The notes beneath the pieces are model-generated. The model did no database searches. It worked only from the letters and a program-made list of their open reading frames with translations, and had not been told where the DNA came from. The position numbers and the translations under genes were made by a program. A stretch of DNA of 64,000 nt from Escherichia coli (GTDB lineage: Bacteria; Pseudomonadota; Gammaproteobacteria; Enterobacterales; Enterobacteriaceae): assembly GCF_044324785.1 (NCBI RefSeq), contig NZ_CP172127.1, one strand, 5' to 3'. Positions 7,894 to 46,447 of this stretch are shown here, in pieces (the stretch's first letter is position 1; every line of letters starts with the position of its first letter).

Positions 7894-8043
7894 TGTTGAC
7901 TCCGAATGCTGGTTATCTATCCAGTGTAACAGGCGGGGAGCGATTAAAAAAGAGGCGGGTTGATGACAAAGGTTACACCGTCTGACGTGCTACGCCTGTC
8001 AGGCCTATTCGACTCCTGCAATGTATTGAATTTGCATAGTTTT

Positions 8044-31828: not shown

Positions 31829-31910
31829 AACGCCATCAAAACATTGACTTTTATCGCCGTAGCCTTTTCAATAAAGGTCTTTTGAAGAGTACCAAAAGGT
31901 AACGCAAGCA

Positions 31911-31955
31911 ATGAATGCTGCTATTTTCCGCTTCTTTTTTTACTTTAGCACCTGA
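31911..31955 (+). CDS. pheM: pheST operon leader peptide (14 aa, 5 Phe)
   Basis: ATG AAT GCT GCT ATT TTC CGC TTC TTT TTT TAC TTT AGC ACC TGA translates to [14 protein letters not shown]; too short for the ORF track, read directly. Confidence 0.9.
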
Positions 31956-32002
31956 CTCCAGGAGGCTAGCGCGTGAGAAGAGAAACGGAAAACAGCGCCT
32001 GA

Positions 32003-32028
32003 AAGCCTCCCAGTGGAGGCTTTTTTTG
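32003..32028 (+). terminator. pheST attenuator terminator
   Basis: gcctcc-cagt-ggaggc followed by ttttttt, between pheM and pheS. Confidence 0.8.
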
Positions 32029-32196
32029 TATGCGCGTTTTGAAAAATAAAAAGCCTGTCTCATCAGGCGTAATTGTCGCAGCCAGTCTGGACACGGCCAG
32101 CGCGGAGAAACCGGAGCGTATTTAAGTACGTGAGGATTTCGAGCACTGCCCGGGACCAAAATGGCAAGTAAAATAGCCTGATGGGATAGGCTCTAA

Positions 32197-35628: not shown

Positions 35629-35928
35629 ATGGCGCTTACAAAAGCTGAAATGTCAGAATATCTGTTTGATAAGCTTGGGCTTAGCAAGCGGGATGCCAAA
35701 GAACTGGTTGAACTGTTTTTCGAAGAGATCCGTCGCGCTCTGGAAAACGGCGAACAGGTGAAACTCTCTGGTTTTGGTAACTTCGATCTGCGTGATAAGA
35801 ATCAACGCCCGGGACGTAACCCGAAAACGGGCGAGGATATTCCCATTACAGCACGGCGCGTGGTGACCTTCAGACCCGGGCAGAAGTTAAAAAGCCGGGT
35901 CGAAAACGCTTCGCCCAAAGACGAGTAA
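35629..35928 (+). CDS. ihfA: integration host factor alpha subunit
   Basis: ORF 35629..35928, 99 aa, [52 protein letters not shown]... Confidence 0.97.
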
Positions 35929-35940
35929 TCTGATCTAACT

Positions 35941-35972
35941 AAAAAGGCCGCTCTGCGGCCTTTTTTCTTTTC
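35941..35972 (+). terminator. ihfA intrinsic terminator
   Basis: aaaaaggccg-ctctg-cggccttttttcttttc. Confidence 0.8.
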
Positions 35973-36028
35973 ACTGTCGAAGAGTCACCGTAAAATCAAC
36001 GCCATGACACTTCAGCAGAACGGATACC

Positions 36029-39160: not shown

Positions 39161-39874
39161 ATGAAGATTTTTTTGGAGAATCTTTATCATTCTGATTGCT
39201 ATTTCCTGCCGATAAGAGATAACCAGCAAGACCTTGTCGGCGTTGAGTTAATTACCCATTTCTCCAGTGAAGATGGTACGGTTCGTATCCCGACGAGTCG
39301 GGTTATAGCGCAACTTACCGAGGAGCAACATTGGCAATTATTTTCTGAGCAGTTGGAATTGCTAAAATCATGCCAACACTTTTTTATTCAACATAAACTC
39401 TTTGCCTGGCTTAATTTAACCCCACAAGTGGCTACTTTATTATTAGACAGGGATAATTACGCGGGCGAACTATTAAAATATCCGTTTATTGAACTGTTGA
39501 TTAATGAGAATTACCCGCATCTCGATGAAGGAAAAGATAATCGCGATCTTTTTTCCTTATCGCAAATGTATCCCCTTGTGTTAGGTAATTTGGGCGCAGG
39601 CAATAGCACAATGAAAGCGGTTTTTGATGGCCTTTTCACCCGCGTCATGCTGGATAAAAGTTTTATTCAGCAACAAATCACGCATCGCTCCTTCGAACCG
39701 TTTATTCGTGCGATCCAGGCGCAAATTTCCCCATGTTGCAATTGCATCATCGCGGGGGGCATTGATACGCCAGAAATAATGGCACAGATTATCCCCTTTG
39801 ATTTCCATGCTCTCCAGGGATGCCTGTGGCCTGCCGTTCCTGTAAATCAGATAACGACGTTGGTTCAGCGATAA
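39161..39874 (+). CDS. ydiV: anti-FlhD4C2 factor YdiV (degenerate EAL domain)
   Basis: ORF 39161..39874, 237 aa, MKIFLENLYHSDCYFLPIRDNQQDLVGVELITHFSSEDG... Confidence 0.94.
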   Translation: MKIFLENLYHSDCYFLPIRDNQQDLVGVELITHFSSEDGTVRIPTSRVIAQLTEEQHWQLFSEQLELLKSCQHFFIQHKLFAWLNLTPQVATLLLDRDNYAGELLKYPFIELLINENYPHLDEGKDNRDLFSLSQMYPLVLGNLGAGNSTMKAVFDGLFTRVMLDKSFIQQQITHRSFEPFIRAIQAQISPCCNCIIAGGIDTPEIMAQIIPFDFHALQGCLWPAVPVNQITTLVQR

Positions 39875-39897: not shown

Positions 39898-41373
<1,476 letters not shown>

Positions 41374-41376
41374 AGG

Positions 41377-41568
41377 CTACTTGGTCAACAGCAGCTTGCC
41401 AGCCTGAGTTTTACGAAGCAGATATTCTTGCCCGTCATGATCGATAATCAGTTTGCCATCCGGACCTAACAGTGTCTGGCTGGTAATTCGCCGAATGGGC
41501 TGCGGGGAAGCGGTCTTGTGATTGGCATCCGTTTCAGGCGTGAGTTTTCTGCTATCCGTATAACGCAT
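41377..41568 (-). CDS. ydiE: HemP-family small protein YdiE
   Basis: ORF 41377..41595; start set to ATG 41568 ([28 protein letters not shown]..., 63 aa); convergent with selO, stops 3 nt apart. Confidence 0.85.
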
Positions 41569-41582
41569 AAAAATTAATAATA

Positions 41583-41609
41583 ATTGATATAACAATAATT
41601 CTTATTATC
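41583..41609 (-). promoter_or_regulatory. Fur-box-like sequence upstream of ydiE
   Basis: Minus-strand GATAATAAGAATTATTGTTATATCAAT resembles the Fur consensus GATAATGATAATCATTATC; lies 15-40 nt upstream of the ydiE ATG. Confidence 0.5.
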
Positions 41610-41699
41610 AATATTCTGGCGGGCCAGAGCAAGCAGTAATTTGTTGAGAAGACAACAAGTTGCGCAGAAATGCCCATTCCGTCAGGAATGGGCACGCAT

Positions 41700-42746
41700 T
41701 CAGAAGCGGGTATCAACCGCAGAGGCGAGTTTTTCGACCAGGCGTTCGGTATCTTCCCAGCCCAGACACGGGTCGGTAATCGATTGACCGTAAGTGAGCG
41801 GCTGACCGCCGACGATTTTTTGCGTTCCTTCGCGCAGGAAACTTTCCGCCATAATTCCAGCAATCGCCGTAGAGCCATTGCGGATTTGCTGACAAATATC
41901 CTCACAAACTTCTAACTGGCGACGGTGCTGCTTCTGGCAGTTACCGTGGCTGAAATCCACCACCAGATGTTCAGGCAAATCAAATTCGTGCAGCGTATCG
42001 CAGGCTGCGGCGATATCATCGGCATGATAATTCGGTTTTTTGCCGCCACGCATAATAATGTGGCCATACGGGTTGCCGCTGGTCTGATAGATGGTCATCT
42101 GACCATTTTTGTCTGGCGAGAGGAACATATGGCTGGCGCGGGCTGCGCGGATAGCATCCACAGCAATCCGCGTGTTGCCATCGGTACCATTTTTAAAACC
42201 TACCGGACAGGAGAGTGCCGAAGCCATTTCACGGTGGATCTGACTTTCGGTAGTACGTGCGCCAATCGCGCCCCAACTGATTAAATCAGCAATAAACTGA
42301 CCGGTCACCATATCGAGGAACTCAGTCGCGGTGGGGACGCCCAGCTCATTTACCTGTAAAAGTAATTTGCGCGCCAGCTCCAGACCGTGATTTACCCGAT
42401 AGCTGCCGTTTAAATCCGGATCGGAGATTAGCCCTTTCCAGCCGACAACAGTTCGTGGTTTTTCAAAATAGGTGCGCATTACGATTTCCAGCCGTGACTG
42501 GTACTGGTTGCGCAGCGACTGCAGACGGGTGGCGTACTCCATTGCAGCGGTGAGATCGTGGATCGAGCAGGGGCCAATAATGACCAACAGTCGCTTATCT
42601 TCACCATTCAGTATTTTTTCAATTCTGCGGCGGGAGTCGGTGACATGGGTGGCGACGCCAGGCGTTACGGGATACCGTAGCGCGAGTTCGGCGGGCGTTA
42701 CCAGGCTCTCAATACGCGCAGTACGGAGTTCGTCAGTTCTGTTCAT
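41700..42746 (-). CDS. aroH: DAHP synthase, Trp-sensitive isozyme
   Basis: ORF 41700..42746, 348 aa, MNRTDELRTARIESLVTPAELALRYPVTP... Confidence 0.97.
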   Translation of the reverse strand: MNRTDELRTARIESLVTPAELALRYPVTPGVATHVTDSRRRIEKILNGEDKRLLVIIGPCSIHDLTAAMEYATRLQSLRNQYQSRLEIVMRTYFEKPRTVVGWKGLISDPDLNGSYRVNHGLELARKLLLQVNELGVPTATEFLDMVTGQFIADLISWGAIGARTTESQIHREMASALSCPVGFKNGTDGNTRIAVDAIRAARASHMFLSPDKNGQMTIYQTSGNPYGHIIMRGGKKPNYHADDIAAACDTLHEFDLPEHLVVDFSHGNCQKQHRRQLEVCEDICQQIRNGSTAIAGIMAESFLREGTQKIVGGQPLTYGQSITDPCLGWEDTERLVEKLASAVDTRF

Positions 42747-42891: not shown

Positions 42892-42909
42892 GCACTAGTT
42901 CTCTAGTAC
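42892..42909 (-). promoter_or_regulatory. TrpR operator of the aroH promoter
   Basis: Minus-strand GTACTAGAGAACTAGTGC, matching the known aroH trp-repressor operator; overlaps the ppsR stop codon (42903..42905). Confidence 0.85.
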
Positions 42910-43736
42910 ATTCGGCGGCTAAGGCCCATGATATCGAGGATCTTGGTGGCAATCTCTTCTACCGAATAATTGGTACTGTTAATCCACGGGATCTGATTTT
43001 TACGGTACAACGCTTCCACTTCCGCGACTTCCATCCTGCACTGACGAAGCGAGGCATAGCGACTGTTCTCCCGACGTTCCTCGCGAATCGCCGCCAGACG
43101 TTCCGGGTCGATAGTCAGGCCGAACAATTTATGCTGAAGCGGTTTGAGCGACGCGGGTAGCACAAGATTATCCATATCGTCGGCAATAAAGGGGTAGTTT
43201 GCCGCGCGGATACCAAACTGCATTGCCAGATACAGACTGGTGGGGGTTTTACCACAGCGAGAAACACCGAGCAGGATCACCTGAGCCTGGTCCAGATTGC
43301 GCAACGAAATGCCGTCATCGTGGGCGAGGGTGTAATCAATCGCCGCAATGCGCGCATCATATTTATTGAGATTATTAGGGTTAAGGCCGTGGGTTCGGTG
43401 AGCAATCGGCGTTGGATCCAGTTTCATCTCTTGTTGTAGCGGGGCAACCAGCGCCTGAACGATATCCTGGCAAAACCCTTCACTTTGCAAGATGATGGCG
43501 CGAATCTCCGGCAATACGATGGAGTAGAAGACCAGCGGGCGCACACCTGTCTGGTGATAAATTGCGTCAATCTGATCCTTCACTGCCCGTGCACGGCTCT
43601 CATTTTCGACAAACGGCAGCGTAATGCTGCTGATAGTGACGGGAAATTGTGACATTACTGCGTGTCCTAATACCTCCGCAGTTATTGCCGTACCATCAGA
43701 AATATAAAAAACGTGGCGATCAACAGCATTATCCAT
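42903..43736 (-). CDS. ppsR: PEP synthase regulatory protein PpsR (bifunctional kinase/pyrophosphorylase, DUF299)
   Basis: ORF 42903..43736, 277 aa; P-loop GVSRCGKT. Confidence 0.95.
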
Positions 43737-44068: not shown

Positions 44069-46447
44069 ATGTCCAACAATGGCTCGTCACCGCTGGTGCT
44101 TTGGTATAACCAACTCGGCATGAATGATGTAGACAGGGTTGGGGGCAAAAATGCCTCCCTGGGTGAAATGATTACTAACCTTTCCGGAATGGGTGTTTCC
44201 GTTCCGAATGGTTTTGCCACAACCGCCGACGCGTTTAACCAGTTTCTGGACCAAAGCGGCGTAAACCAGCGCATTTATGAACTGCTGGATAAAACGGATA
44301 TTGACGATGTTACCCAGCTTGCGAAAGCGGGCGCGCAAATCCGCCAGTGGATTATCGACACTCCCTTCCAGCCTGAGCTGGAAAACGCCATCCGCGAAGC
44401 CTATGCACAGCTTTCCGCCGATGACGAAAACGCCTCGTTTGCGGTGCGTTCCTCCGCTACTGCAGAAGATATGCCGGACGCTTCTTTTGCCGGTCAGCAG
44501 GAAACTTTCCTCAACGTTCAGGGTTTTGACGCCGTTCTCGTGGCTGTGAAACATGTATTTGCTTCTCTGTTTAACGATCGCGCCATCTCTTATCGTGTGC
44601 ACCAGGGTTACGATCACCGTGGCGTGGCGCTCTCCGCCGGTGTTCAGCGGATGGTGCGCTCCGACCTCGCATCTTCTGGCGTGATGTTCTCCATTGATAC
44701 CGAATCCGGCTTTGACCAGGTGGTGTTTATCACTTCCGCATGGGGCCTTGGTGAAATGGTCGTGCAGGGTGCGGTTAACCCGGATGAGTTTTACGTGCAC
44801 AAACCGACACTGGCGGCGAATCGCCCGGCTATCGTGCGCCGCACCATGGGGTCGAAAAAAATCCGCATGGTCTACGCGCCGACCCAGGAGCACGGCAAGC
44901 AGGTTAAAATCGAAGACGTACCGCAGGAACAGCGTGACATCTTCTCGCTGACCAACGAAGAAGTGCAGGAACTGGCAAAACAGGCCGTACAAATTGAGAA
45001 ACACTACGGTCGCCCGATGGATATTGAGTGGGCGAAAGATGGCCACACCGGTAAACTGTTCATTGTGCAGGCGCGTCCGGAAACCGTGCGCTCACGCGGT
45101 CAGGTCATGGAGCGTTATACGCTGCATTCACAGGGTAAGATTATCGCCGAAGGCCGTGCTATCGGTCATCGCATCGGTGCGGGTCCGGTGAAAGTCATCC
45201 ATGACATCAGCGAAATGAACCGCATCGAACCTGGAGACGTGCTGGTCACTGACATGACCGACCCGGACTGGGAACCGATCATGAAGAAAGCATCTGCCAT
45301 CGTCACCAACCGTGGCGGTCGTACCTGTCACGCGGCGATCATCGCTCGTGAACTGGGTATTCCGGCGGTAGTGGGCTGTGGTGATGCAACAGAACGGATG
45401 AAAGACGGTGAGAACGTCACTGTTTCTTGTGCCGAAGGTGATACCGGTTACGTCTATGCGGAGTTGCTGGAATTTAGCGTGAAAAGCTCCAGCGTAGAAA
45501 CGATGCCGGATCTGCCGTTGAAGGTGATGATGAACGTCGGTAACCCGGACCGTGCTTTCGACTTCGCCTGCCTGCCGAACGAAGGCGTGGGCCTTGCACG
45601 TCTGGAATTTATCATCAACCGTATGATTGGCGTCCACCCACGCGCACTGCTTGAGTTTGACGATCAGGAACCGCAGTTGCAAAACGAAATCCGCGAGATG
45701 ATGAAAGGTTTTGATTCTCCGCGTGAATTTTACGTTGGGCGTTTGACTGAAGGGATCGCGACGCTGGGTGCCGCGTTTTATCCGAAGCGCGTCATTGTCC
45801 GTCTCTCTGATTTTAAATCGAACGAATATGCCAACCTGGTCGGTGGTGAGCGTTACGAGCCAGATGAAGAGAACCCGATGCTCGGCTTCCGTGGCGCGGG
45901 CCGCTATGTTTCCGACAGCTTCCGCGACTGCTTCGCGCTGGAGTGTGAAGCAGTGAAACGTGTGCGCAACGACATGGGGCTGACCAACGTTGAGATCATG
46001 ATCCCGTTCGTGCGTACCGTAGATCAGGCGAAAGCGGTGGTTGACGAACTGGCGCGTCAGGGGCTGAAACGTGGTGAGAACGGGCTGAAAATCATCATGA
46101 TGTGTGAAATTCCGTCCAACGCCTTGCTGGCAGAGCAGTTCCTCGAATATTTCGACGGCTTCTCAATTGGCTCAAACGACATGACACAGCTGGCGCTCGG
46201 TCTGGACCGTGACTCCGGCGTGGTGTCTGAACTGTTCGATGAGCGCAACGATGCGGTGAAAGCACTGCTGTCGATGGCGATTCGTGCCGCGAAGAAACAG
46301 GGCAAATATGTCGGGATTTGCGGTCAGGGTCCGTCCGACCACGAAGACTTTGCCGCATGGTTGATGGAAGAGGGGATCGATAGCCTGTCTCTGAACCCGG
46401 ATACTGTGGTGCAAACGTGGTTAAGCCTGGCTGAACTGAAGAAATAA
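44069..46447 (+). CDS. ppsA: phosphoenolpyruvate synthase
   Basis: ORF 44069..46447, 792 aa, [34 protein letters not shown]... Confidence 0.97.

Follow-up and report, generated by a model that had tools for sequence, protein, structure and literature searches.

A probable Fur operator over the core promoter of ydiE, a small hemP-family gene of Escherichia coli

Small PF10636 proteins resembling YdiE are encoded by hemP of the Yersinia enterocolitica hemPRSTUV genes and by the HemP/HmuP/ChuP genes of Burkholderia, Bradyrhizobium, Ensifer, and Chromobacterium. Like ydiE, the hemP/HmuP/ChuP genes have Fur-controlled promoters and are expressed under iron limitation; unlike ydiE, which stands alone, they are the first genes of haem uptake operons, and their products regulate haem receptor genes. 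Haem binding and the regulation of haem receptor genes have been described for the ChuP and HmuP proteins of other bacteria, and ydiE of E. coli was described as a gene of unknown function (PMC10164565). The classical Fur operators, represented here by entC, fepD-entS, mntH, and sodA, consist of AT-rich, palindrome-like boxes of 19 bp that overlap in a 6-bp phase and lie over the core promoter; the ydiE upstream region shares the phased boxes and, with the candidate promoters considered below, may share their placement.

The orthologous locus of K-12 is the closest described system. In a study of nine E. coli strains, ChIP-exo of Fur together with RNA-seq of the fur deletion mutants placed ydiE in a core Fur regulon of 36 genes, and ChIP-exo peaks were assigned to ydiE in all nine (PMC10164565). 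The W3110 peak (1791295-1791307) of that study (PMC10164565) is located 20-32 nt 5' of the ydiE ATG (1791327), which corresponds to positions 41588-41600 of our window and falls inside the 27-nt string examined here (Table 1). The ydiE peaks of MG1655 and W3110 are offset by 3,690 bases, which is also the offset of the sufA peaks, and thus, the MG1655 peak represents the same site. ydiE belongs to both Fur iModulons and co-varies there with genes such as fepA, fhuA, and entC (PMC10164565). The log2 changes of ydiE in the fur mutants of the nine strains were 2.87 (MG1655), 8.14 (W3110), 5.24, 2.91, 7.08, -1.10 (BL21), 3.20, 2.23, and 5.16 (PMC10164565). The upstream gene aroH was nearly flat in the fur deletion mutants (log2 change of -0.48 in MG1655 and +0.54 in W3110; PMC10164565) while ydiE rose, and therefore, ydiE has its own Fur-controlled promoter. 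In BL21(DE3), ydiE was the only core Fur regulon gene to go down in the fur mutant (log2 change of -1.1; PMC10164565), which indicates that simple repression is not universal and that the strain background can invert the response. These binding and expression data from K-12 were obtained on the C allele of a site that carries a T in the window.

In Salmonella Typhimurium, ydiE was expressed 7.4-fold higher in a fur mutant (PMC3212961, Troxell et al., 2011), and the same study cites earlier identifications of Fur sites at Salmonella ydiE (by Fur titration) and at Yersinia hemP. The Fur box of the orthologous hemP-family gene of Salmonella enterica (STM1346), GATAATAATAATCATTGTG, is about as far from the ATG as that of the window. 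In the subspecies arizonae and diarizonae, it scored 19.2 bits, and it is closer to the consensus than the box of the window; the leader and the N-terminal third of the protein also differ between the Salmonella and E. coli genes. The ydiE Fur site is already known, having been documented in E. coli through ChIP-exo and transcriptomics and in Salmonella through genetics. It is an ordinary site of the textbook type and matters little beyond correct annotation.

The window, i.e., the whole 64,000-nucleotide stretch of DNA analysed, is part of an E. coli chromosome in reversed orientation relative to K-12. A 501-nt stretch around the site was found with at least 95% identity in 5,422 of 5,426 complete E. 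coli genomes, where the annotated genes are hemP, aroH, and selO, and the promoter region was 98% identical to that of K-12. The gene order and orientation aroH-ydiE-selO are the same in K-12 and the window. A sequence-only reading of this DNA had described ydiE as convergent with selO, with the two stop codons 3 nt apart, and as divergent from aroH; the ORF map agreed with the former statement, and the latter had to be corrected, as both genes are on the minus strand and co-directional with aroH upstream, in K-12 likewise. The hairpin that follows the aroH stop codon was matched in folding by none of the shuffled sequences (0 folded equally well), and, as judged from its modelled fold, it is likely the aroH terminator, separating the transcription of aroH from that of ydiE. 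The regions 41300-41800 and 40900-41400 were scanned for promoters and terminators, with zero calls; the terminator scan missed this hairpin because its U-tail (AUUUCU) is weak.

Table 1 Positions of genes, Fur boxes, and other features around ydiE in the window (sequences on the minus strand are read as reverse complement)
Feature	Position	Strand	Remarks
rflP/ydiV	39161-39874	+	ORF and profile search
selO	39937-41373	+	ORF and profile search; convergent to ydiE
ydiE/hemP CDS	41377-41568	-	63 aa; ATG at 41568, stop codon 41377-41379; gene under regulation
ATG-proximal Fur-like AT-rich block ATCAATTATTATTAATTTT	41570-41588	-	21 bp downstream of the best box; 11.2 bits
27-nt string GATAATAAGAATTATTGTTATATCAAT	41583-41609	-	-41 to -15 from the A of the ydiE ATG
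Best 19-bp Fur box GATAATAAGAATTATTGTT	41591-41609	-	14/19 to consensus; 15.6 bits
Single-base variant	41597	-	T (C in K-12); position 13 of the best box; rare
Overlapping weaker Fur box AATATTGATAATAAGAATT	41597-41615	-	Shifted 6 bp upstream; 9.2 bits
Putative -10 hexamer GATAAT	41604-41609	-	Invariant in 14 sequences; first hexamer of the Fur box
Putative -35 hexamer TTGCTC	41627-41632	-	CTTG invariant, next C nearly invariant across three genera
Hairpin after the aroH stop codon (GCCCAUUCC-UGAC-GGAAUGGGC)	41672-41693	-	-21.4 kcal/mol, z-score -4.3
aroH	41700-42746	-	ORF and profile search; 5' of ydiE, tandem, 131 nt apart
ppsR	42903-43736	-	ORF and profile search
ppsA	44069-46447	+	ORF and profile search

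YdiE matched the Pfam family hemP (PF10636) over residues 27-63 (E-value of 3.7e-15; 55.9 bits against a cut-off of 25), the NCBIfam equivalog PRK10183 (135.5 bits against a cut-off of 77), and the PDB entry 4YNX, which is named 'YdiE' (E-value of 1e-37), and the gene is annotated as hemP in RefSeq E. coli genomes. The assignment of ydiE to the hemP family as a small gene, made earlier from the sequence, is therefore borne out by PF10636, PRK10183, and the length of the product. The same reading had called the protein haem-uptake-associated, and this description was upheld with respect to family membership and not with respect to context: the neighbours are aroH and selO, ydiE lies outside any haem uptake operon, and no haem receptor or transporter gene adjoins it, so that the operon context of the HemP family is missing. 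'Haem-uptake-associated' is best taken as a family label only for YdiE. ydiE, which has no haem uptake system beside it, counts among just 36 core Fur targets. The N-terminal third of YdiE diverges among the orthologues. A YdiE sequence 98% identical to that of E. coli was also retrieved from a 417-bp, low-coverage contig labelled Streptomyces sp. NTH33 (NZ_POTZ01001146.1), which is most likely E. coli contamination of the Streptomyces assembly.

The match of the best ydiE box to the 19-bp consensus GATAATGATAATCATTATC was equalled at five other positions of the window, and plain consensus counting was rejected as a criterion. As the count was not discriminating, a matrix was trained on independent sites, using the W3110 ChIP-exo peak coordinates of 15 Fur regions (fepA-fes, fepD-entS, fepB, entC, fiu, fhuE, tonB, yncD/E, sufA, cirA, mntH, exbB, yqjH, sodA, and efeO) from Dataset 2 of PMC10164565, with ydiE left out. 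Palindromic expectation-maximisation, seeded with the consensus, resulted in a matrix with the consensus GAAAATGATTATCATTTTC and 16 bits of information. With this matrix, the best ydiE box ranked second in the 64 kb. The best boxes of the 15 training regions scored 10.0-21.8 bits, values that are inflated since each site helped to build the matrix. The ydiE box is in the middle of this range, compared to 19.7-21.8 bits for entC, fepD-entS, mntH, and sodA, and its half-site ATTGTT deviates from the ATTATC of these classical operators. Dinucleotide-preserving shuffles reached 15.6 bits in 0.3% of cases for the 131-nt intergenic region and in 0.6% for the proximal 60 nt (77% A+T), and approximately 0.24 sites of at least this score were expected per shuffled 64-kb window. 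The sequence evidence can be considered good for the ydiE upstream region and only suggestive for a trawl of the whole window.

The top matrix match in the window was at 26631-26649 (AATATTCATTACCATTTTT, 17.1 bits), inside a minus-strand ORF of 632 aa (26193-28091) that matched no model in an NCBIfam search, and another strong match at 1525-1543 was also inside a long ORF. The W3110 ChIP-exo list has zero peaks between ydiV and yeaP, a span that covers both matches. As Fur sites, these two matches are probably non-functional, being located inside ORFs and devoid of a ChIP-exo peak.

The best box is flanked and overlapped by weaker boxes, and the array spans approximately 41570-41615. A 6-bp phase shift, as seen between the best box and its upstream neighbour, is typical of Fur box arrays. 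The hexamers AATATT, GATAAT, and AAGAAT are in register and match GATAAT at 4, 6, and 4 of 6 positions, respectively, and 4 of 6 positions of ATTGTT agree with the reverse hexamer, so that the ydiE array shows the hexamer repeats of a Fur operator. The equivalent of the upstream overlapping box scored 10.7 bits in K-12, and its scores were 14.7-17.1 bits in the Salmonella and most of the Citrobacter sequences, with one at 12.4 bits. Binding of Fur to the ATG-proximal block in particular is predicted from its sequence. The sequence-only reading had placed a Fur-box-like site just upstream of the ydiE ATG, from which the string is now found to span 15-41 nt, and had suggested iron- and Fur-dependent repression of ydiE; the former was confirmed, and the latter agrees with the published ChIP-exo, the derepression in eight of nine strains, and the increase in Salmonella.

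YdiE relatives were scanned in one genome per species, giving 13 loci from Escherichia, Citrobacter, and Salmonella, 12 of which had usable upstream DNA; the alignment comprised 14 upstream regions from these three genera. The core block TTGATAATAAnAATnATTGT was invariant in all 14 aligned sequences, and the mean majority fraction of the box was 0.97. The sub-block ATTATTATTAAT (41584-41573) was nearly invariant (mean majority fraction of 0.94). The corresponding values were 0.59 further upstream, 0.62 in the promoter spacer, and 0.52 in the last four bases before the ATG, and the start of the ydiE coding sequence also diverged among the genera. The best Fur box was at the equivalent place in every orthologue, with 14.6-20.9 bits. 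This pattern amounts to a clean phylogenetic footprint of the operator.

The same alignment points to a promoter. TTGCnn was always located 17 bp upstream of GATAAT (14/14 sequences; TTGTCG in C. sedlakii), and the spacer between the two varied; from this conserved TTGCnn-17-GATAAT arrangement with a variable spacer, we infer a sigma-70 promoter. The ydiE promoter is thus predicted to be TTGCTC-17-GATAAT, with a transcription start near 41597 and a leader of approximately 30 nt, which constitutes a concrete, testable prediction. The promoter scan missed it because the -35 hexamer shares only 3 of its 6 bases with TTGACA. A mapped ydiE transcription start was not found in the literature searched, and the Cappable-seq supplements list neither ydiE nor nearby coordinates. 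Genomic SELEX with the RpoD holoenzyme detected a constitutive promoter in the aroH-ydiE spacer, and a different ydiE promoter, TTGATA-16-TATCAA, was predicted in that study (PMC3946193). Its -10 hexamer is replaced by GTTTGA, AATTGA, or AACTGA in Salmonella and Citrobacter, and, because it is not conserved outside Escherichia, this candidate was ranked second to TTGCnn-17-GATAAT. Whichever of the two candidates is taken, the Fur box overlaps core hexamers of the promoter.

We conclude that the 27-nt string is very probably the core of the ydiE Fur operator and that an array of Fe2+-Fur over the core promoter represses ydiE. Under iron-sufficient conditions, Fe2+-Fur dimers would bind the overlapping boxes between approximately 41570 and 41615, most strongly at the best box, and the bound Fur would lie over both the -10 hexamer and the start site, presumably excluding RNA polymerase. 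A box reaching from the -10 hexamer across the start site is the classical arrangement for repression by exclusion of RNA polymerase. Under iron limitation or upon deletion of fur, the array would be free of Fur, and ydiE would be transcribed from its own promoter, independently of aroH. The occlusion mechanism, the exact hexamers and start site, and the number of Fur dimers are predicted features of this model.

The window differs from K-12 at one base of the best box and at three further bases, which are in the spacer between the -35 and -10 hexamers. At 41597, C was present in all 13 other aligned sequences, and the T of the window is a very rare substitution at an operator position that is invariant elsewhere in the alignment. 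Among the 5,409 complete E. coli genomes with a match, only 3, including strains SCU-172 and MSB1_4I, have the exact 83-mer with T, and 3,719 have the version with C. The change costs 2.3 bits (17.9 bits in K-12 to 15.6 bits in the window). The rarity of the allele, its cost, and the invariance of the base elsewhere are what would be expected if T weakened the operator and the box had decayed, leaving ydiE partly or fully derepressed. We consider such a decay quite unlikely, as the residual score is still higher than those of the best boxes of four training regions (fhuE, 10.0; exbB, 13.3; tonB, 14.3; and fepA-fes, 15.1 bits), the flanking boxes are intact, and 41597 is the central spacer base of the promoter-proximal 7-1-7 unit, an 'n' in the ChIP-exo consensus TGAnAATnATTcTCA (PMC10164565). 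The T-allele site is expected to bind Fur still and to work, because its residual score exceeds those of boxes in the four regions, which are supported by ChIP-exo.

The operator reading thus retained for the window allele leaves the question of whether Fur acts alone. H-NS or another nucleoid protein might be the main silencer of ydiE, with Fur in a secondary role, displacing or assisting it and not excluding RNA polymerase. The aroH-ydiE spacer was marked as an H-NS site (PMC3946193), which implies that Fur may not be the sole silencer; Rcs control of ydiE was listed in the Salmonella study (PMC3212961), and the opposite sign of the response in the BL21 fur mutant would also fit. As an account of the main silencing, this is very improbable: the overlap of the Fur box with core hexamers under either promoter is enough for direct occlusion, ydiE co-varies in both Fur iModulons with classical directly repressed genes such as fepA, fhuA, and entC, and the conservation is base-specific to the Fur motif and does not follow general AT-richness. 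H-NS is possible as a co-factor at ydiE and is not needed. That the site is a chance match from an AT-rich promoter (a -10-like element, a UP-element-like feature, and an AU-rich leader) at which Fur is inactive draws on the composition of the proximal 60 nt, the five places tying in the consensus count, and the top matrix match, whose position inside an ORF free of W3110 peaks indicates that matrix matches can be non-functional, but it can be dismissed as extremely improbable against the ChIP-exo peaks in nine strains, the derepression in fur mutants, the rarity of the score in shuffles of the same 60 nt, and the invariance of the box in the three genera, next to equally AT-rich bases that vary.

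Direct repression by Fur at the ydiE operator remains the preferred reading, and several minor features were observed around it. A conserved AATTA/ATTTA motif is located at 41637-41641, just upstream of the putative -35 hexamer, and its A40, T42, T43, and A44 were invariant in the 14 sequences; it could be a UP-element-like feature or the site of another protein. The 15 nt before the ydiE ATG (41569-41583, TTATTATTAATTTTT) have no purine-rich Shine-Dalgarno sequence, so that the ydiE leader is purely A/U-rich. The position of the ydiE start codon relative to the conserved blocks differs among the genera. An Rfam scan of the whole window found no RNA family at or near the ydiE site, and therefore, a reading of the AU-rich leader as a riboswitch or sRNA was dropped.

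On the other side of ydiE, the scans found no terminator-like hairpin on either side of the selO and ydiE stop codons (41373-41379 and flanks). With the stop codons 3 nt apart and no hairpin, each transcript must end inside the other gene, and ydiE transcription released by Fur would run antisense into selO. ydiE-selO was listed as an excludon candidate by ExcludonFinder (PMC12288877). Simple transcriptional interference of selO by derepressed ydiE was not supported, as selO rises and does not fall in fur mutants (+0.32 in MG1655 and +1.6 in W3110; PMC10164565).

A second Fur-like box (GAGAATCTTTATCATTCTG, 39176-39194, 13.3 bits) begins within the rflP/ydiV coding sequence, 15 nt from its start, and a further one is at 39327-39345. 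The box at 39176-39194 overlaps the position equivalent to the published ydiV ChIP-exo peaks (W3110 1793696-1793708; MG1655 P54); the W3110 peak is approximately 27-39 nt past the ATG, as extrapolated from the K-12 gene spacing. ydiV was induced 3- to 23-fold by iron starvation by a mechanism left unexplained (PMC7515728), and it barely changed in fur mutants (log2 changes of -0.36 and -0.61; PMC10164565). ydiE, selO, and rflP (ydiV) might constitute a small iron-responsive neighbourhood with two Fur sites, one being the ydiE operator and the other lying within the initial 35 nt of the rflP coding sequence, although we regard this as unlikely. If it were true, the C-to-T operator variant might shift the set-point of the ydiE-selO coupling in the lineage of the window.

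Elsewhere in the window, four Rfam matches reached the gathering score, namely the RprA sRNA (60705-60812, minus strand), the Phe leader (31905-32029, plus strand), STnc540 (35870-36028, plus strand), and ES036/CssrF (8001-8043, minus strand), and all four are expected for that part of the E. coli chromosome.
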